Assembly (NCBI GenBank): GCA_020724225.1
Contig: DYHI01000003.1
Location: 1,103 to 65,102, forward strand
DNA from: Candidatus Altimarinus sp.
Lineage (GTDB): Bacteria > Patescibacteriota > Gracilibacteria > BD1-5 > UBA6164
Direction of reading: 5' to 3'
Length of the DNA stretch: 64,000 nt
Shown here: positions 36,765 to 51,400 of the stretch, piece by piece
Position numbering within the stretch: position 1 is the stretch's first letter
Layout: the number at the start of each line of letters is the position of its first letter
Program-made: the position numbers and the translations under genes
Notes under the pieces: generated by a model
The model's database searches: none
Seen by the model: the letters and a program-made list of their open reading frames with translations, nothing else
What the model was told of the DNA's origin: nothing

Positions 36765-38993
<2,229 letters not shown>

Positions 38994-41296: not shown

Positions 41297-43972
41297 TTAT
41301 TTAATCATATTTTTTAAAATTTTATAATCAGTCTTCCCTGTTCCAAGAACTGGAATACTTTCCACAATTATATTTTCTGTAATTTTTACAAGATTACTAA
41401 CTCATCTTTTTCTCAGGTAATCATTTACTTCTTCAATTTCTATCTTTTCAATAGAAAACAAAACTATTTTTGCATTTCCATCTTTTTCAAGAGCTTCAAT
41501 TGCTATTCTCAATTCTTTATCACTACCATATTTTTCTAGCAATATATTTTCCACAAATGGAAGTGAAATCATCTCTCAAGCTATTTTTATAAATCTTTTA
41601 AGTCTACCAGTAATTGATAAAAATCAATCATTATCTACAAATCATAAATCTCAAGTTTTATAATACAATTTTCAATCAATTTCTTCAAAAGGACTTTCGA
41701 GTTTTTCATCTAGGTATCAGCTAAATATAGAACTTCAAGATACATAAATCATTCATTGAGATCAAATTGGAAGTTCTTTATAATAGATTCCTGCCTCCGC
41801 AGGAATGACAGAAGGTATTGTATTTATATCTATTATTTTATATTCCAAATTTGGGAGAATTTTTCAGACAGTTCATGGTTTACTTCAAACTATAGGATTT
41901 ATAGAAACAACAGGACTACACTCAGTTATTCCATATCATTCCAAAATTACTCAATTTGGTGATAATTCTTTAAATCTTTCAAATACTTCTTTTGAACATT
42001 TTTCAGCTCAAACTACTGCATATTTTACATTTTTTAAATAATCTCAACTTGCAAGAGCCATTATCATTTTCAAGAAAGTTGGAGTAGAAGTGATGGCTGA
42101 CACTTTTGTATGTTTAATTATTTCCAAAATAGTTTTTGCATCATTTGGATCTGGAGTATTTGCAACTCTTAAGGATGTAATAAGAGGCATAATAGAATTT
42201 ATAGTGAATCAAAAACTATGAAATGGTGGAAGAAATCCTAGAAGTATATCATCAGATTTTAATTCAAAAATATTTAATGCTCATTTAATATTTTCTATCA
42301 AATTTGTATGTGTAAGTGGAACTGCTTTTGGTAAACTTTCAGATCATGAAGTAAAAAGTATAACTGCATTTTCTTGAAGTTTTGGAATTGGTAGATAAAA
42401 ACTTTTTAAAAGTGCATAAATTTTTTCTGAAACTTTTCATCATTTAAGTAAATCTTCCAAAAATAGAAATCTTCAATTATTTTTATGTTCTTCTAAAAAA
42501 TCATTTTTAACTCTATCATAAAAACTTGAAACTGTTATTATTTTATCAACTTTTGAAAATTTTACACAGTGATCAAATGCTTCTTTCCCTAGAGTCCAAT
42601 TAAACATCACTGGGGTTTTTCCTGCTAAGTAAGTTGCAATTATAAGTAAACTAGCTCATGATACAGCAGGCATCATAATTCCTATATATTCTCAATCTAT
42701 TTTTTTAATTCTTTTCGATATAAAATAAGCTTTTAAAATGAAATCTTTTTTTGTTTGAAGTCAAAGGATATTGTCCCAAATAAAAGTTTCATTTTTATTT
42801 TCCCTAAAGTTTTGTTTCTACAAATCAAGAATTGTTTTATATTTTCTATTATTAATTTTTTCAAACAAATTAGTTACAATTGCATTTTGTTTTCCCCACT
42901 CACACTCTTTCAACTTCTCATAACTTTTACTTTTTCAAACTGCCATTACATACAAATCTCAAACTGTTTTTAAATCAGTTATTGGAGGATTTGAAGCTCA
43001 AGGAAAATTTGCTTGAACAAATGATTTTATTTCAGCAGCATCTAGGCTATCGAAAAATAAATCTAAAATAAGTTTTGAATTATCATCTATTTTTGTTTTA
43101 TCAATTCATTTAATAATTGATATTTTTTCATTAATCTTCACTTTTACATCTTCTGGGATCTGTGATAAATCATAATTATTAGTAATATTTAATTCTTTTT
43201 CCGAACCTGTAATAATACTCGGTTCTTTTTTATCTTTTACATCGTTATAGAAAAAATAATGTGGGATGTATCTTAATTCTTCTAGTGGTTCAACATTATA
43301 AAAATCTTCTAAAAATTTATTGAACTCATTAAGAGATTTTGTTTTATTTTCATTTATTTCTTTTGTGATATCAAAAATTTCTATATTTACATCTCTTTTT
43401 GGAACAAAAAATAGTAAATTAGCAAAAGTAAATTTTATGCTTTGAATATATGCTTTAATAAAAGTTGTTTCACCATTATCCCAAGCTTTTGACCAAATAC
43501 TTCCCCAAAGTCATCTTTGTCTCAATCAAATAACTTTTGTATTTTCAGGCATATTATTTGCAATAAAATATGCTGATTGTTTTCACTTAATACTTTCAAA
43601 ATTTTGTCTATAGATTTGACCAGATGGATAAATGAGTATATTTTTTCATTCTTTTAATCACTCTACAATTGAAGTAAATACTTTTTTTACATCTTCCGCT
43701 GATGCTCAAGCAGTCATTTCTCAAATAGGTACAGCTCAAACCAAATTCATAGCCTGTTTCAAAACTGGAAGTTTATAATATTTCTCAGAAGCAACAGGTG
43801 AAGCAATTATATATTTTCACAAAAAAGCTATAAGAATACGAGGATCAACCAAAGCGACATGATTTGGTAAAACCAAAATTGGTCAATTGTGTTTCAGATT
43901 TTCTACTCATTTTAGTGTTACTTTGTAACGGATAGAAAGGATTAGACGAACGATGAAAAGAATTAGTTTCAT
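41297..43972 (-). CDS. Aas-like trifunctional protein: lysophospholipid acyltransferase, acyl-carrier domain, acyl-AMP ligase. Interrupted by one in-frame TAG.
   Basis: LPNHVALVDP acyltransferase motif. LFFDSLDAAEI carrier motif. AMP-binding motifs LFTSGSESLPKAVPLTH, EGYGITE, YYKTGDLG, GTGKTDY. One frame of 891 codons from start to stop, with TAG at 42818-42820. Confidence 0.75.
41783..41809 (-). repeat. Single hairpin module in frame in the AMP-ligase domain
   Basis: Reverse complement gtcattcctgcggaggcaggaatctat encodes VIPAEAGIY, between ...KIIDINTIPS and YKELPIGSQGMIYV. Confidence 0.9.
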
Positions 43973-45227: not shown

Positions 45228-45818
45228 TTACTCGAAATCAACACAAACACTGTAAAAAACATCATCTTTTCTTCCAAAAAACACTTGCCTATTTTGTCAT
45301 TTATAGTTTAGTGATAGAAATAATGTAAAATCTAATCAAGTAATAGTTTTTTTACTATCTTTTACTGATTTCAATATAATATTTTTCATATCATCTAAAC
45401 TTCCAAAAATATATTTTATTACACTTTCTTTTGCAGTCCAAAGTATGAAAAAGTTTTCAAAGTTCTTTCATCAAAGTACAATATATTCTTCATCATCAAA
45501 TTGATTTAAAACTGATATATCTCTTTCTTTGTATACTTCTATATCAATTCATATTTTTTTGTCACTAACTCAAACAAAAACTAAATCATCTTTATGTGAT
45601 ATAGTCCAAAAAAGCCAATTATCAAAAATAGGCTTTCAAGTTTTATCAATCTGTGGAAAATAGTTTTTAATTCAAAATTCTCTCTCAATTTCTTTTGAAA
45701 TCAGATATCTAGCAACTAGAGATTCTTTTGAATTAAAATTATTTATGTAATTTTTTGGGAAATAGTTTAATGTATCTTGATATAATGAATCAATATTATT
45801 TTGTATTTGTAAGTTCAT
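45228..45818 (-). CDS. 4'-phosphopantetheinyl transferase (Sfp-type)
   Basis: WTISHKDDLVFVGVS, IGIDIE, WTAKESVIKY. 196 aa. The ATG is 1 nt after the radical SAM stop. Confidence 0.8.
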
Positions 45819-45819
45819 T

Positions 45820-47202
45820 TTAATTATTATAAAACATATTATAAGTTGAAAATGGATAAACCTTCCCTGGCTCAATTATAAAATTACATTCTCTTTTTAT
45901 ATTTGTAGAATCAAAATTATACATATCACTAAATTCCATAATAACTATTCTAAAAACATTTTTATAACTCATATATTCTGGGGCTATAAAATCTGGCCAA
46001 CAACAAAAAAGTTTTCTTTTAATTCTATCCTTTAAGATATTTTCTCACATAGCAGTATCTAAACTTACTGTTTCTATAACTGTTTTTATAAAATCTCTAT
46101 CTTGTTCAAATGCAACTGTTCATTTTTGATGAGTTATAACTTCTCTTGGGATTTTTCAAGTAACAGGAAGTATATTTATATTTCAATCTTTAATAGTTTT
46201 TATAGCATATCAAACACTTATTTTATGTGGATCACAAGGAAGTGGAATCATATCATCACTGGTAAATCAATTTTTATTTGTATCTATTACTTTTTGTCTT
46301 ATTTCAGATAATGTTATCTTATAATCATTCTCTGAATCGTTTCTTCATACATCACTTATAGGTTGAAAAACTATTCATCTGACACAGTCTTCTCGAGTTG
46401 CAAAATTAATTAATTCTCAAATTTCTTCATCATTTACTCATCTTGAAACTACACAAACAAGTGTTGTAGAAATATCATATTTATTTAACATTGCTAAAGC
46501 TTTTTTTCTTGTTTGTAGCATATCTTGATTTCTTAGAATTTTTAGAGTTTCTTCTTTTAGAGAATCAAATTGTAAATACACTTCAAATCAAGGTCATAAA
46601 TCTTTTAATGATGCAACAAAATTTTCATCATTTGCGATTTTAATTCCGTTTGTATTTAGCATTAGGTGTCTAACTGGTCATGATTTTAAATATTTCAAAA
46701 TACCCAAAATTTCTGGATGAAGAGTTGGTTCTCATCATGTTACTTGTATGAGATCAGGTTTTGATTCAACTTTTAAAAGAGTTAAATGCATAATTTTTAT
46801 ATCAGCTAAACTTTTATAATTTCATTTTCAAGGTTCTGCTTTATGATAACAAATATTACATTTCATATTACATTCATCAGTTACATTAAAAAGAGCTAAG
46901 CAAGGATGATTTTGATGTTGAGGACAAACTCAACAATCCCAAGGGCATCAATGTTTTACTTCTGTCAAAGCAGTTTCTGGAAGATCAGGAAGTTTTAAGT
47001 AGTTTTCACACTTTTTATAATATTCAAGATCCGTTGATATTTTTACAAAAGTTTCTCCACAATCAGGACAAAATTTTCTCAAAAAAACTTCATTATCTTT
47101 TGAAACTATATGAGTATCAATGAGTTTTTTTGTTTTACAAAGATGACAAAAACTTTGTGTAGTAGATAGAAATATATCATAGTTTCTGTTGTATTGTGCC
47201 AT
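45820..47202 (-). CDS. Radical SAM protein with an N-terminal Cys4 zinc ribbon (MJ0619/Tes-like architecture)
   Basis: CHLC...CPDCG ribbon, GCPWDCGVCPQHQNHPC, CNMKCNICY (CX3CX2C), VTGGEPT, C-terminal ...ECNFIIEPGKVYPFSTYN. 460 aa. Confidence 0.75.
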
Positions 47203-47206
47203 AATT

Positions 47207-47668
47207 TTATTTATAAAATAATCACATTTTTCAATTTAATTTATTATAAATTAAATATAATGAAATTAATCAAGTTATAATCAAAAATATTCAAAAAAAT
47301 TTATCTTTATAATAATTATCTTCAAATAATATTATTCATCAAAAGACTAATAATCAAACTCAAACAAAAAATAATGACAACCATCAAATAAATTTAAGAA
47401 TTTTTCACAATAAATCTTTTATAGTTATTCAATTATTTATTATGTATAATATTAATCAAAATCAATATTTTAATATAAGATAAATTAAATAAAATCAAAA
47501 AATTACTATTGGATAAAACAGTAAATTTGATAATCTATAATATTCATATGAAGTCATATATATCAAAAAAGTTCATCAACATAAAACTCAAAAAATTCAT
47601 AATAAAATAAATAAAACTAATAATATAATTAATAATATTTGTTTTGTGGTAAGTTTATTATTTTCCAT
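47207..47668 (-). CDS. Small polytopic membrane protein (153 aa)
   Basis: MENNKLTTKQILLIILLVLFILLGIFGVLCGG... Its ATG overlaps the lgt 3' end and it stops 4 nt before the radical SAM ATG. Confidence 0.55.
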
Positions 47669-48400
47669 AATTATATTTATTTAATTTATAAATTACATAA
47701 ATTATCATCCCAATAGAAACTATTTGAATAGTATTTAATCCTATCCATAAGTGACTATAAGGCATAATAAATCAAGCTAAAAATCTGTATAAAAATACAC
47801 AAGACAAAAAATAAAAAATCAATTTTTTATCCAGTATTCTTTTTTATATTTCAATCATATAATTAATAATACTCAAATAAATAATAACACAAGTATTTCA
47901 TAAATTTGAGTTGGATGTCTAAATATTCCATCTCAATAATCATATCACCAAAATAGACTTGTTTCAATTCAGTGAGTATTATCTCTTAGTCATATATTAA
48001 AAGCTCAAATTCTTCATACTATAATTCAAACTATTAAGCTAGGAACAAAAACTACTCAAGTATTAAATTTTAAATTATATATTTTTTTAACTATTTCAGA
48101 AGCTATTACTCAACCTGCAATTGCTCATGCAATTGTTTTTGATAAAACAATTCAATCTCAAAAGTTTTCTTGAAAATATCCTGAAACATAATTATCAAAA
48201 GTTGAAACTAATATTGCAAAAAATATAGCTAAACCAAGTATTCATAAATAATAAAAAAGTTTTTGTTCAAAATTTGAAAAAATATTTGAATTTATATTGT
48301 GTTTAAAATAATATTTATAGCTTAAATATCAAGCTATTCATCCAGATAAATAACCTAAAAAATCACCTAATATTTTTATTTTATAATAATCAAAATCCAT
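47658..48400 (-). pseudogene. lgt: Prolipoprotein diacylglyceryl transferase (Lgt-like) with an apparent 1-nt frameshift
   Basis: VGRIGAFN and RHPTQIYE lie in the start frame, which hits TAG at 47777-47779. The Lgt-like C-terminus YRFLAGFIMPY...IQIVSIGMI continues in another frame to TAA 47658-47660. The break is at a T5/A5 run (47791-47795). Total length is 743 nt, not a multiple of 3. Confidence 0.7.
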
Positions 48401-48416
48401 AAAACATAATTTATTA

Positions 48417-51400
48417 TTAAACAACCTCAACACTACCCCCATCCTTCACAAATTTTTCTACAATTTCAACTATTTTATCATAGTCTCTTTTATTTAATTC
48501 TGATTTATAATTTGCTTTTATATAATCAAATGTTGTTTTTAATTCTCACTTCTCAAAAGTTGTTTTTCAAGATTGCTCTATAACTATTTTTCACATTTTT
48601 ACTAAATTTTTTGCTCTAATTTTTATATTTTTTCAATCATTGAATTTAAAAATTATTGCAGTTTTTTCTCATAAATCTATCTTTTCCAAATCGGTATTTA
48701 TAGTAGATGATTGAGATTTTTCAGGATTAACTATTGTAGAAGTTTCTTCACTCGCAAAATCATCGCTCAATTTTAAATTATTTTTTTTATATAAACTTGA
48801 TATATAAATCATTATTGATCATACAAACATAAAAGCTACAATTCTTACAATTGCATTATCCGTTATATTCCAGATATCATACAATCACATTTTAACCAAT
48901 GTAATAATAAGTAAATATAATCAAGCTGATCTGATATTTTTATTTAAATTAAATATTCAAATATGAACCGCAATCAAAGATAAAATTCACCAATAAATTG
49001 TTAATGAAAAATAATCATTTGTAAAATTAAATAAATAGATTGAAGAAATAATGAAAAAATAAATTCCTGAAATTATATTCATATATTTATACTTAATTTC
49101 AAAAAATCTTGATTGAAGATAAACAATAGATAATGATAAAATAGTAAAAATATAATTTAAATTATAATTATCAAAGAAATTAGTTGAAATTATGTGCACC
49201 AACAACAATCATACTAATAAAGCTTGAGAAAAATATGATAGAATTTTATCTTTAAATAAATCGTAAATAACTCAGATAAAAGTTGTAAAAAATAAAGTGA
49301 AAATCAAGAAATTTCAATAATCTTTAAAATCAAATATTGTAACGAGATTTACAAAAACTATAAAAATTCAAAAAATATGTAAAACTTTTGTAAATATTGC
49401 ATCTTTTGAAGGCAATTTTATATTTAAAAACAATAATATTGAAATAATTCAAATAGAAACTAAATCAGAATAATTTAAAGATATTCAATTCAGACTTGCA
49501 TCCATGTATTTTACAAGTCAGATTATAAAAAGAATAATTCAAGCCAAATAAATTTTTTCTTTATTTAATTTATTTGCAAAATAAAATAATATAGTTGATT
49601 CAAATAACCAAATTATAGAAATTACAAGTGGTAATTTAGAAAAAACTAAAGCAACTGAAATAGAGAATAAAGAAACAGCTATAGCTAAAAATGCATACAG
49701 TAAATTTAGGTTTGAATCATTTTTTATTTCTTCTTTATCCAACCTAGAAAAAATCAAAAATCATCAAATGAAATATAAAATAGCAAGTCATAAAAATGCA
49801 ATACCTAAACTTACTCCTGGAAAATATTCATTTCAAAATCTAAATAAATTTCATCATACAAAAAGCACTCAAAGTATAATTCAAAAGATCAAATTTGTTG
49901 AATCATTTTTTATAAGATTTTTATTTACAAAAGGAAGTAAATAATTTGAAATTCAAAAAAGTGTAATTCAAATAATTGATAAAAATGAAAATTCTCATTT
50001 TACTTCAATTATTGATAACAATAAAACAATAGTTGAAAATGTTCATAATGTATATAAATAGCTCAAATCTTTTTTCGTAGACAAAAAATATGTAGTAAAA
50101 AAGTATATAAATGATGTAATAAAAATAGTTAAAAAACTTGCTTTATCTATTCAAAAATCTATATTTAAATGTAGATTTGCAAGAAATAAAAATACTCCCA
50201 AAATAACAAAAAATATATATTTAAAAATCGATGAAACTATACTTCAAATTCAAAATGCAAATACTAGTAAATATGCAAGTAAAAAAAGTGGAATCAAAAT
50301 TATTCAAGTTCAAGAAGCTCATAAAAACAAGAAGAAAAGTACAAATAATAATGGTAAAAATATTAAATTTAATAGTCAAACTCAAATAGATGTAATTATA
50401 AAGAATGAATTAATTATTAATAATCAAAGAGTAGCAATTATAAACATTATCATTACTCATAAACCTGTAAGAGCATAACCTGAAAACATTATAAATGCTA
50501 AAAATATATATGTGATAATAAATGATAACATTATATTTTTTACCTGCTTATTTTTATAAAGTAGGAAAATTGATGCAAAATTAATTACATTAAATCAAAT
50601 CATTTTTGATACAAAATATGAAGAATCGTTTCAAAAAGGTGCTATCAAAAAAAGTATATTTCATCAAATAAGAGTTGTATAAAATAATTGAATCGAAGTT
50701 AAATTATCTCATACTTTGTAAAAATAATTACTTAAAAATAATCATCAAATACTCAAAATCAAACTATATCAAACAAGCAAAAATGGAGTATTATAATTTT
50801 CTCAAATTATAAATGGAATTATATATGAAAATATAATAGAAAATAAAAGTAGATTTTTTGAACTGTAAACAAATGATGTAACTACAGAAAAAATAGTATT
50901 TAATATAAGTAAAATAAATGTAAGATAACTATCTAAAAATCAATTTCAAATAATAAATTTTCAACTTAAAATAACTATATAATTTATCAAGATTCAAGTT
51001 CAAATAAGTATAGTTCATTCTGTATCATATCATTTATTATGAACAAATACTCATACAAAATAAACTGTAAATCAAATTACAAATCATATAAGTATTTTTG
51101 CTACTGGTCAGACATAAGTATAAACTAAACTCATCAAAAATATAACTCAAAGTGCAAGTAAAATTCATCCTATTTTTGCCATAAGATTTTCAGCAAAAAA
51201 ATCAGATAAAAATTTTGCAATTTTTGAAGGTTCTTCAAGTTTTTCTTCCCTTATTTCATTTATTGAATCATTTTTATTTTCTATTTTATCAATATTTCCT
51301 TGAAGTAATATATTATTGTTTTTTTCTTTTTCCAATCTAGTATAATAATCTTCATCATAAAAATCATCATCTATTTTTTTTACTCATACTATTTCTGATT

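Follow-up and report, generated by a model that had tools for sequence, protein, structure and literature searches.

The radical SAM protein MJ0619 is, according to the report on its structure (PMC9433317), the GDGT-MAS, an identity based on both structure and assay, and a pterin activity was not corroborated by the authors. The same paper gives the metal-ligand set of GDGT-MAS, including a rubredoxin-like site and an N-terminal [4Fe-4S] cluster, describes the binding of bacterial phosphatidic acid and the formation of a C-S intermediate on the C-terminal cluster, and lists Met439 and Tyr459 as completely conserved across 1,000 archaeal homologues. Bacterial Tes homologues have been proposed as makers of brGDGT-type lipids (PMC8941075). 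The tails of two ester-linked fatty acids are coupled in bacteria by the radical SAM membrane-spanning lipid synthase Mss (Thermotoga maritima Tmari_0825; Sahonero-Canavesi et al. 2022, PMC13159169), and radical SAM coupling of ester-linked lipid tails is also the type of chemistry proposed below; according to the literature Mss is not a BLAST-level homologue of Tes and no link to Lgt has been reported for it, and it is set apart here on its published description.

Two further systems bear on the locus described here. Sactisynthases and other thioether-forming radical SAM enzymes (AlbA, SkfB) have an auxiliary cluster near the active site and form a bond from Cys sulfur to carbon on a small, genetically linked peptide, as the enzyme under study might. 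They differ in carrying SPASM or twitch domains instead of the Tes C-terminal domain and in acting on soluble peptide substrates, and lipid-binding pockets are not known in them. Lgt (E. coli b2828; PDB 5AZB/5AZC; PF01790, TIGR00544) is the closest known relative of the gene that partners the enzyme. Both genes were analysed within the window, i.e. the whole stretch of 64,000 nucleotides from Candidatus Altimarinus sp. that was presented for analysis.

Results

Under translation table 25, in which TGA encodes Gly, the radical SAM gene is a single frame with 19 in-frame TGA codons, which fall at sites where Gly is expected, e.g. in the radical SAM motif VTGGEPT. The table 11 reading of the same positions was discarded because it gives a longest ORF of merely 84 aa, and the ORF is confirmed as a real gene under table 25. 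Since the host contig (65 kb) carries code-25 genes and the genome is 94.6% complete and 0.56% contaminated, the gene is not a contaminant. In Pfam the protein matches Radical_SAM (PF04055) over residues 106-268 with 80.1 bits (cut-off 29.5) and Zn_ribbon_HMPTM over residues 11-55 with 36 bits (cut-off 27), and its C-terminal end carries RECNFIIEPGKVYPFSTYN. An N-terminal ribbon, the stretch G85-CPWDCGVCPQH-96, a CX3CX2C cluster and this C-terminal sequence had been listed in the first-pass annotation, and all were recovered in the table 25 translation. The gene starts 4 nt downstream of a small membrane ORF, and its stop codon (45820-45822) is followed after a gap of 1 nt by the likely ATG of a PPTase gene at 45818, the radical SAM gene being upstream.

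Table 1. Features of the radical SAM locus, in positions of the window.
Feature	Position	Strand	Basis or remark
Radical SAM enzyme, Tes/GDGT-MAS superfamily, assigned to an unnamed Lgt-linked branch	45820..47202	-	460 aa, code 25
Family-specific Cys set C323, C400, C401, C439 + M422, putative auxiliary-cluster ligands	45886..46236	-	alignments
Radical SAM cluster motif C111-x3-C115-x2-C118	46849..46872	-	invariant; inside PF04055 match
N-terminal auxiliary [4Fe-4S] motif GCPWDCGVCPQH (C86, C90, C93, H96)	46915..46950	-	invariant in alignments A1 and A2
Rubredoxin-like metal site C19-x2-C22...C45-x2-C48	47059..47148	-	alignment to 7TOL
Small polytopic membrane protein, 153 aa, ...LLGIFGVLC30GGTF; candidate substrate or partner	47207..47668	-	CGG motif, gene context
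Diverged Lgt paralogue, ~247 aa, 1-nt frameshift	47658..48400	-	Pfam LGT 31.6 bits; homologues in two frames
C-terminal soluble domain of 1092-aa DUF2339 membrane protein (tentative part)	48417..48830	-	tblastn

The best match among sequences of known structure, and the only one over the full length, was GDGT-MAS/Tes MJ0619 (PDB 7TOL, E 2.5e-56). An AF2 model of the radical SAM protein (pLDDT 80, pTM 0.84) aligned by Foldseek with 7TOM over the full-length four-domain fold (TM 0.82/0.76, E 6.8e-34); the runners-up covered the core alone at TM ~0.39, the next-best being SkfB (TM 0.39). Likeness to GDGT-MAS/Tes extends from this four-domain architecture and full-length fold, at 28-29% identity, to the rubredoxin-like site, the N-terminal motif CPxDCGxCPxH, the CX3CX2C cluster and a C-terminal domain that contains the blocks ...FxDxYNFD...PFxTYN and M422, the equivalent of Met439. 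Residues C86/C90/C93 and H96, in the context G85-CPWDCGVCPQH-96, correspond to C73, C77, C80 and a His of GDGT-MAS. The fourth rubredoxin ligand is Cys in the window's protein, whereas it is His in GDGT-MAS; members of the family all have C19, C22 and C45, with either Cys or His at position 48.

Neither named equivalog accommodates the protein. The NCBIfam model for Tes (NF045702) gave 236.1 bits against a cut-off of 450, with a match mainly over residues 15-324, and the best-scoring NCBIfam model, that of the radical SAM (seleno)protein TrsS (NF045646), gave 263.4 bits against a cut-off of 490 over residues 14-456. In a tree of the superfamily the protein lies outside both the clade of true Tes (P0307, 527 bits) and that of TrsS (representatives 515-652 bits), and the Lgt-linked Tes-like family forms a clade of its own (SH-aLRT 100). 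Identity with Tes is ruled out by the score, the separate clade and a mismatch in the C-terminal Cys residues, and identity with TrsS by the score and the separate clade. TrsS shares the superfamily and the N-terminal motifs with the window's family, which differs from the TrsS C-terminal pattern xMC..C; one TrsS member (P0251) carries a fused DUF5714 domain with an MbdU-like match and has no link to LGT. The window's family is bacterial and paired with an Lgt paralogue, of which archaeal Tes has no known need. On these comparisons the radical SAM enzyme is assigned to an unnamed bacterial branch of the Tes/GDGT-MAS superfamily. The first-pass annotation had guessed at an MJ0619/Tes-type enzyme rather than a cofactor-maturation enzyme and had proposed a phylogeny with Tes homologues. 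At superfamily level the guess holds, both in the 7TOL match and in the model comparison, and cofactor enzymes, like peptide maturases, match within the radical SAM core alone; the phylogeny did not place the protein inside the Tes clade, and at the level of the Tes equivalog the guess had to be given up.

True Tes and TrsS sequences share the C-terminal pattern xMC(C)..C. In the window's protein the GDGT-MAS C-terminal Cys columns C438/C455/C456/C470 are occupied by I421/E438/C439/S452, so that one of the four is Cys, and Ile stands in the Tyr459 column, where the family as a whole has Ile, Met or Phe, while the window's clade keeps M422. A different set of Cys residues, C101, C323, C400/C401 and C439, is invariant or nearly so in the family alignments A1 and A2 and is complete in the window's protein; within it C323, C401 and C439 are invariant and C400 is nearly so. 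C323, C400/C401 and C439, together with M422, are presumed to be the ligands of a rewired C-terminal auxiliary cluster. The AF2 model has low confidence over residues 361-411, with pLDDT ~40 around C400/C401.

A diverged Lgt paralogue is the conserved partner of the radical SAM enzyme. In the window a single small ORF separates it from the radical SAM gene, which lies downstream of it on the same strand. It adjoins the radical SAM gene in 18 of 21 CPR and Campylobacterota loci. Among 80 named loci drawn from about ten phyla, including Pseudomonadota, Bacillota, Bacteroidota, Planctomycetota, Melainabacteria and Gemmatimonadota, 76 show the same adjacency, in most cases with the paralogue on the same strand and 20-90 nt upstream. 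Both genes occur in the same 18 of the 151 genomes of the order, with none discordant, and natural LGT-Zn-ribbon-rSAM fusion proteins exist (P0163, P0281). Some neighbourhoods also hold further lipidated-Cys enzymes, namely an Lnb_N protein and an ICMT-family protein.

The window's Lgt paralogue is matched across two frames by homologues of 243-248 aa. The profile of the paralogue family matched Lgt (5AZB/5AZC) alone in PDB, with an E of 1.5e-11, and a Foldseek search of the paralogue model against PDB gave no significant match, Lgt included. The paralogue is shorter than Lgt (~245 against 291 aa). It keeps R143, G145, G154, Y235, R239 and usually E243 (E. coli Lgt numbering), as well as the RHPxQLYE block; H103 and E151 are absent, and N146 is replaced by Cys (Ala in Gracilibacteria). 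H103, N146 and E151 are reported to matter in E. coli Lgt. Since two of them are gone and the third is Cys or Ala, the paralogue may not transfer diacylglycerol. Canonical Lgt genes are present elsewhere in the host genome. The canonical identity (TIGR00544 equivalog, cut-off 118.9 bits) was rejected for the paralogue on scores below the cut-off and on the three residues that are not kept; the Paenibacillus paralogue reached 56 bits, and an NCBIfam search of a Gracilibacteria paralogue (P0121) returned no match.

The small membrane protein between the two genes has its Cys (GVLCGG) 21 residues past the last N-terminal Lys, and nowhere else in the genome does a CGG stand at the end of a hydrophobic helix. 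Normal lipoproteins of the host genome have the lipobox L(T/S)SC, whereas the microproteins carry (T/L)CGG or GGC(S/G); the geometry of the presumed acceptor Cys, at the outer end of an N-in transmembrane helix, is like that of a lipobox Cys. When all ORFs of 21 related loci were searched for CGG tripeptides, 23 of 24 lay in small ORFs adjoining the radical SAM gene (~0.3 expected). Analogous small Cys ORFs, often overlapping the rSAM stop, are found in other phyla, and matches to the Cys motif numbered 40 in 12.2k aa near rSAM genes against 24 in 137.6k aa elsewhere, the median distance from a net-positive flank to the Cys being 19 residues. All that is conserved among the microproteins is one Cys with small residues on either side, and searches of Pfam and NCBIfam assigned them to no family. 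The microprotein does not hold up as a universal third component, since a recognisable Cys microprotein occurs in about 40% of the named loci and none was found at locus L035; from the same proportion it may be an accessory or one of several substrates. Judged by their sequences, small membrane ORFs with one lipobox-like Cys are a frequent, not universal, third part of the module.

A DUF2339 membrane protein may contribute a further part. By tblastn, its residues from about 957 to 1092 match ORFs that lie between the Lgt paralogue and rSAM genes in L021, L023, L024, L027 and L032, and in other Gracilibacteria the same soluble domain is fused to Cys-motif membrane ORFs in that position. No Pfam family reached its cut-off on this C-terminal domain.

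The other side of the radical SAM module in the window is occupied by a lipid-recycling cassette of PPTase, LplT-like MFS, Aas-like and patatin genes. The first-pass annotation had described the radical SAM gene as embedded in a lipid operon and had derived its role from coupling to the PPTase and lipid-handling genes. The PPTase of relatives travels with LplT-like MFS and Aas-like genes; of 29 relatives, 24 have it beside an LplT-like MFS gene and none beside the radical SAM gene, and across ~100 related loci PPTase or lipid-handling genes never adjoin the radical SAM gene. The supposed operon is two independent modules side by side, with an adjacency specific to this genome, and a functional link between PPTase and radical SAM enzyme is rejected on synteny. 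The first-pass annotation had itself named missing synteny with lipid genes elsewhere as grounds for refutation, and on this count its argument from the PPTase and lipid-handling genes fails; a different lipid-related synteny, with the Lgt paralogue and Cys membrane proteins, is conserved. An ACP-like domain suspected, as a carrier for the PPTase, in the C-terminus of the acyltransferase ORF (DLFFDSLDAAEI...TVGDL) was discarded, Pfam being empty even at E up to 1; the genome as a whole yielded no detectable PP-binding domain.

In the tree the window's gene clusters with genes of Campylobacterota (support 100/100), which indicates that the lineage gained the radical SAM module by lateral transfer shared with Campylobacterota. 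Monophyly of the Gracilibacteria genes was neither shown nor rejected in the tree (support 35/0), and in a quick tree Campylobacterota were nested, weakly, inside Gracilibacteria. At least four or five versions of the module are placed separately within CPR lineages, which appear to have acquired the Lgt-linked Tes-like family laterally several times. More than 573 stretches with such genes, a lower bound, were found among species-representative genomes. The family is not special to CPR bacteria, being widespread in ordinary bacteria; cultured carriers include Paenibacillus harenae DSM 16969, Heyndrickxia sporothermodurans DSM 10599 and Bradyrhizobium sp. Ce-3.

Discussion

The radical SAM enzyme probably carries out a so far undescribed modification, of the lipid or lipid-protein type, since its unnamed branch travels with an Lgt paralogue and not with PPTase or lipid-recycling genes. 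The proposal favoured here, held tentatively and at somewhat less than even confidence, is that the enzyme belongs to a conserved membrane module of Lgt paralogue, Tes-like enzyme and Cys microprotein that tailors a lipid anchor. The chemistry is drawn entirely from family resemblance and gene context. The Lgt paralogue would still bind a phosphoglycerolipid and move the diacylglyceryl group onto the small protein's Cys. The radical SAM enzyme would bind that glycerolipid moiety before or after transfer, as GDGT-MAS binds lipids, and would abstract hydrogen from acyl-chain carbons, leading to a new C-C or C-S bond, with its C-terminal cluster held by the other Cys set (C323, C400/401, C439, plus Met422). 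The outcome would be a lipid anchor with covalent tailoring, macrocyclic or cross-linked for instance, and the module would merely adjoin the independent PPTase/LplT-like/Aas-like/patatin cassette in this genome. A difficulty for such a mechanism is topological: Lgt works at the outer leaflet, but a radical SAM enzyme has to be in the cytoplasm.

Several features of the module would also suit a radical S-alkylation or S-lipidation, in which the Cys thiolate of the microprotein would occupy the open site of the C-terminal cluster and be attacked by a lipid or peptide carbon radical to give a thioether, the Lgt paralogue serving as a scaffold or lipid presenter. A lone conserved Cys with small flanking residues is all that the microproteins share, the window's clade retains Met422, which corresponds to the labile ligand Met439, alongside a rewired set of Cys ligands, and the Lgt paralogue has lost H103, N146 and E151; the chemistry of GDGT-MAS passes through a C-S bond, and the sactisynthases offer an analogy. 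However, the Cys lies at the outer end of a helix, far from a cytoplasmic enzyme, the Lgt paralogue retains R143 and R239, and many loci have no detectable microprotein, and on balance a thioether product seems unlikely.

A reading in line with that of the first-pass annotation, a synthase of membrane-spanning or macrocyclic lipids that couples the tails of host-scavenged bulk phospholipids re-acylated by LplT/Aas, draws on the full-length GDGT-MAS fold, on the ester-linked bacterial lipids bound by GDGT-MAS, on the brGDGT-type lipids proposed for bacterial Tes homologues (PMC8941075) and on tight packing against the lipid-recycling genes. This last adjacency is unique to this genome, however, and the pairing with an Lgt paralogue is left unexplained. 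The protein fails to reach the Tes cut-off and does not group with the Tes clade, with Ile in place of Tyr459 and three of the four GDGT-MAS C-terminal Cys columns not Cys, and members of the family are found in cultured aerobic Paenibacillus, Neobacillus and Bradyrhizobium. We know of no reports of membrane-spanning lipids from these three genera. A bulk-lipid synthase is considered quite unlikely.

Decay of the module in this genome, leaving the radical SAM gene without a current function, is suggested by a partner broken by a one-base frameshift, by an in-frame TAG in the Aas-like gene of the same gene string, and by a patchy presence in the genus, where two of five same-genus genomes carry the family and then as a distant subtype only. 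The frameshift, however, falls in a homopolymer (T5, around positions 47791-47795 of the window), which is typical of assembly error, and once the frame is restored the end of the Lgt paralogue and the ATG of the small membrane ORF share an 11-nt overlap, such as a working operon would have. All 460 codons of the radical SAM ORF are intact, with every family-invariant residue kept, and decay is judged improbable.

A pterin methyltransferase (HMPTM), the older annotation of MJ0619, lives on in the Pfam name Zn_ribbon_HMPTM and in the JGI label '7,8-dihydro-6-hydroxymethylpterin dimethyltransferase' of homologue P0015 and is very hard to credit here, given the identity of MJ0619 as GDGT-MAS by structure and assay, the uncorroborated pterin activity and the membrane-related gene context; to our knowledge methanopterin is not made by CPR bacteria or Bacillota.

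To return to the module that would tailor a lipid anchor, a literature search for a pairing of Lgt with radical SAM or Tes proteins found no description, a 2026 review of lipid radical SAM enzymes makes no mention of Lgt, and the Lgt-paralogue/Tes-like module is named in no family library. In a bolder form, which we regard as rather unlikely, it would represent a new class of protein lipidation in which a dedicated Lgt paralogue attaches diacylglyceryl to the Cys of a microprotein and the acyl tails are then welded by the radical chemistry of the Tes-like enzyme to each other, to a second lipid or to sulfur, and would have been captured repeatedly by episymbiotic CPR bacteria, which make no lipids of their own, from sulfur-oxidising possible hosts. 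If true, the product would be a macrocyclic or membrane-spanning protein-lipid anchor, and many of the 'bacterial Tes homologues' in surveys of brGDGT producers would belong here and not among tetraether synthases.

Published surveys have accepted Tes homologues at E below 1e-50 and identity above 20%. Proteins like that of the window (E 2.5e-56, 28-29% identity to MJ0619, over 400 aa) probably pass these thresholds, and they have a separate clade, a putatively rewired catalytic cluster site and an Lgt-paralogue partner. The findings give a testable context to a large and widespread set of bacterial 'Tes homologues' that matters to membrane biology and to the brGDGT palaeoclimate proxy, and point to a possible new protein-lipid modification arising from two well-studied enzyme families; since cultured carriers exist, the function is directly testable. 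For CPR biology, what appeared to be a single 'lipid operon' is two independent modules, one of which the tree indicates came from inter-phylum transfer shared with Campylobacterota, and the separately placed versions of the module in CPR lineages hint that it may be useful to lipid-scavenging episymbionts.

Identity of the radical SAM enzyme

The G+C content of the window is 20-28%, and long ORFs are nearly absent from it under translation table 11. Read with table 25 (TGA=Gly), this region is a tightly packed string of minus-strand genes, among them a single ORF for a radical SAM enzyme in which in-frame TGA codons coincide with expected Gly residues (for example in VTGGEPT). All of the motifs that the first-pass annotation had listed for this protein are present in its translation. 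The source genome (1.17 Mb) is 94.6% complete with 0.56% contamination, and relatives of the enzyme in protein databases carry the label Candidatus Gracilibacteria.

Features of the module, its neighbours and linked proteins at related loci (L numbers)
Feature	Location or motif	Strand	Basis or context
Radical SAM enzyme, 460 aa	45820-47202	minus	table 25
Metal-site Cys of the enzyme	C19xxC22...C45xxC48		translation
N-terminal motif of the enzyme	GCPWDCGVCPQH, residues 85-96		translation
Radical SAM cluster motif of the enzyme	C111x3C115x2C118		translation
C-terminal motif of the enzyme	RECNFIIEPGKVYPFSTYN		translation
Microprotein	47207-47668	minus	membrane ORF
Lgt paralogue	47658-48400	minus	Pfam LGT family
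DUF2339 C-terminal soluble domain, ~135 aa of a 1092-aa protein	48417-48830		
Sfp-type PPTase	45228-45818	minus	Pfam/NCBIfam; downstream of radical SAM gene
LplT-like MFS protein		minus	Pfam/NCBIfam; downstream of radical SAM gene
Acyltransferase and acyl-ACP-synthetase-like ligase		minus	one Aas-like frame, 892 codons, single TAG within
Patatin phospholipase		minus	Pfam/NCBIfam; downstream of radical SAM gene
Lnb_N-domain proteins	L026:2295-3137, L027:3692-4657, L028:2688-3599		domain match
ICMT/PEMT-family methyltransferase	L033:7061-7666, L034:6173-6775		between radical SAM gene and Lgt paralogue, distant same-genus subtype

Pfam identified a Radical_SAM and a Zn_ribbon_HMPTM domain, and the top NCBIfam models were TrsS (263 bits; cut-off 490) and Tes (236 bits; cut-off 450), the remaining radical SAM families giving core-only matches of at most 78 bits. 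The sole strong PDB match was the archaeal lipid-tail-coupling enzyme GDGT-MAS, MJ0619 (7TOL, E 2.5e-56). An AlphaFold2 model (pLDDT 80, pTM 0.84) superposed over its full length on 7TOM (TM 0.82) and 7TOL (TM 0.79; query-normalised, E ~1e-33); the next matches, SkfB, viperin and MoaA, covered the core only (TM ~0.39). The earlier assignment to the Tes/MJ0619 superfamily was therefore correct.

An exhaustive HMMER search (E < 1e-30) yielded 379 cluster representatives, and a tree of 128 full-length sequences, with clades labelled by NCBIfam runs on representatives, split into four clades: true Tes (P0307, 527 bits), a large TrsS clade (515-652 bits), an 'H-type' clade and that of the window protein, representatives of the last two falling below every NCBIfam cut-off. 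With scores well short of both cut-offs and a clade separate from those of P0307 and TrsS, the enzyme is neither Tes nor TrsS. In other branches of the superfamily, fusions to a class I methyltransferase (P0227), to a MobA-like nucleotidyltransferase (P0274) and to DUF5714 with an MbdU-like match (P0251) hint at additional, distinct functions.

GDGT-MAS forms a catalytic C-S intermediate on its C-terminal [4Fe-4S] cluster, where Met439 is labile, and Met439 and Tyr459 are reported to be conserved across 1,000 archaeal homologues (PMC9433317). The window protein retains the Met (M422), whereas Tyr459 is replaced by Ile and the columns of C438, C455 and C470 are occupied by Ile, Glu and Ser. Alignments of the family instead show C101, C323, C400/C401 and C439 as invariant or near-invariant. 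Because the GDGT-MAS Tyr and three of its Cys are lost and another Cys set is conserved, the catalytic end is predicted to be rewired relative to GDGT-MAS; the model is poor at residues 361-411, the stretch holding C400/C401.

A diverged Lgt paralogue accompanies the enzyme

A 153-aa membrane ORF and an LGT-family gene precede the radical SAM gene; elsewhere the source genome encodes a canonical Lgt (133 bits) plus a further copy. Of 21 CPR and Campylobacterota loci, 18 have the paralogue next to the radical SAM gene, and so do 76 of 80 named loci, which span Campylobacterota, Gamma- and Alphaproteobacteria, Bacillota, Bacteroidota, Planctomycetota, Melainabacteria, Gemmatimonadota and others. 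It usually lies on the same strand and 20-90 nt upstream; in three of the four exceptions the upstream sequence is missing. Within the order, both genes occur in an identical set of 18 of 151 genomes, and two natural LGT-Zn-ribbon-radical SAM fusions were found (P0163 and P0281). ORF calling gave a candidate for a further LGT-radical SAM fusion, a 716-aa ORF in an alphaproteobacterial Stellaceae MAG (L058).

A profile of the paralogue matched only E. coli Lgt in PDB (E 1.5e-11), of which it keeps R143, G145, G154, Y235, R239 and usually E243, and loses H103 and E151, with N146 changed to Cys in most phyla or Ala in Gracilibacteria. It falls below the NCBIfam Lgt equivalog cut-off, and a Foldseek search with its model (pLDDT 83) did not recover Lgt.

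Cysteine microproteins and other linked proteins

Small ORFs that separate the paralogue from the radical SAM gene are mutually unalignable, yet almost all encode a hydrophobic helix followed by x-C-G-G. Among ORFs of the 21 loci (83.6k residues) there are 24 CGG tripeptides, 18 of them in this interval and five more, on truncated contigs, in ORFs that directly precede the radical SAM gene, against ~0.3 expected. The window microprotein (...LLGIFGVLC30GGTF) holds the only CGG that ends a hydrophobic helix in a whole-genome scan, and ordinary lipoproteins of the genome have an L(T/S)SC motif. Campylobacterota encode mini-lipoprotein-like ORFs at the same position (MKKGFWILLLMGVVGFASMGC... and ...LLFGITTGC...), and in other phyla small ORFs, often overlapping the radical SAM stop codon, contain motifs such as PSGLCTG, FAGGCGL, NAACFG and GGICGT. 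Such motifs are ~19-fold enriched near the radical SAM gene, though a recognisable Cys microprotein is found at only ~40% of loci. The last charged residue precedes the Cys by a median of 19 residues (IQR 17-20), a median of 7 hydrophobic residues follows it, and 88 of 107 flanks carry a net positive charge. Judged from sequence, the Cys is positioned as in a lipobox, where a predicted N-in helix has its outer end.

In three Gracilibacteria loci the module is flanked by an Lnb_N-domain protein (E 1.5e-35); the Lnb_N and ICMT families are both linked with lipidated cysteines. The DUF2339 C-terminal domain, which matches no family, recurs in other Gracilibacteria (L021, L023, L024, L027, L031, L032), fused there to Cys-motif membrane segments in the interval between Lgt paralogue and radical SAM gene.

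Neighbouring lipid genes

Coupling to the PPTase and lipid genes had been taken to suggest that the enzyme modifies acyl or alkyl chains. That argument fails, since these genes are absent from beside the radical SAM gene in the 21 CPR and Campylobacterota loci and in the 80 named loci, other phyla included. PPTase homologues occur in 30 of the order's 151 genomes; at the 29 other loci the PPTase directly adjoins the MFS gene in 24, often with a ligase or acyltransferase nearby, and the radical SAM gene in none. Six genomes hold both PPTase and radical SAM gene, on separate contigs or distant from each other. In a same-genus genome (G367), DUF2339 is followed by an unrelated secreted protein of 361 aa (L123:2086-3171), then by PPTase and MFS. 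Because the PPTase-MFS pairing is conserved without the radical SAM gene and an unrelated gene occupies the same position in G367, the module fills a variable slot, within the genus, beside a conserved lipid-recycling cassette.

A TAG at 42818-42820 divides the acyltransferase from the acyl-AMP ligase (...KTILDL*KQNFRENK...) and could reflect a genuine split, a decaying gene, read-through or a sequencing error. A carrier domain proposed at the acyltransferase ORF end (the 'DSL' stretch, ~42821-43105) found no match in Pfam, and no PP-binding domain (PF00550) was detectable in the whole genome despite the Sfp-type PPTase. The peptide VIPAKAGIY/VIPAEAGIY, within ligA (36765-38993) and the acyl-AMP ligase (41297-42676), resembles an in-frame insertion of a short repeat element.

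Evolution

The enzyme shares 64-68% identity with Campylobacterota proteins, encoded on table-11 contigs as long as 507 kb, and only 38-50% with other CPR subtypes, its own genus included. A careful tree united Gracilibacteria and Campylobacterota (support 100/100, long stem), with Campylobacterota monophyletic (99/96); Gracilibacteria monophyly received only 35/0, so transfer may have run in either direction. CPR sequences were scattered over at least 4-5 positions in a broader tree: some grouped with Campylobacterota, some with Thiotrichales and some with Bacteroidota, and others were basal to a Bacillota/Bacteroidota group or lay outside the family. Few members of the phylum sample carry the gene (2/301). 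Its 19 TGA=Gly codons mark it as adapted to its present genome.

Possible function of the module

The architecture and clade of the enzyme, its pairing, co-occurrence and fusion with the Lgt paralogue, and the linked Cys microproteins are direct observations. The whole reading that we tentatively favour is diacylglyceryl transfer combined with radical acyl-chain modification. Difficulties for it are that the two enzymes are expected on opposite sides of the membrane, that the Lgt residues H103 and E151 are lost and that some loci have no microprotein.

Thioether chemistry directly on the microprotein Cys is a rather unlikely alternative. A synthase of bulk membrane-spanning lipids is distinctly unlikely. 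Published discussion treats bacterial Tes homologues as candidate brGDGT synthases only, without experiments, and the T. maritima synthase Mss is reported as a family distinct from Tes (PMC13159169); no paper linking an Lgt paralogue to a Tes-like enzyme was found in the literature searched, and no model in NCBIfam (June 2026) or Pfam names the enzyme, the paralogue or the microprotein. A one-base frameshift at 47791-47795 (a T5 run) interrupts the Lgt paralogue and reflects either an error of assembly or genuine loss of the gene; T6 would restore ~247 aa, a homologue-like length, in a frame whose 3′ end overlaps the next ATG by 11 nt. That the module is a decaying remnant in this genome is improbable. 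A pterin methylase is hardly credible.

In the favoured combination of transfer and radical modification, the Lgt paralogue would place a diacylglyceryl group onto the microprotein Cys, and the radical SAM enzyme may modify acyl chains of the Cys-linked unit or of the donor lipid via hydrogen abstraction, forming a C-C or C-S bond at its putatively rewired auxiliary cluster.
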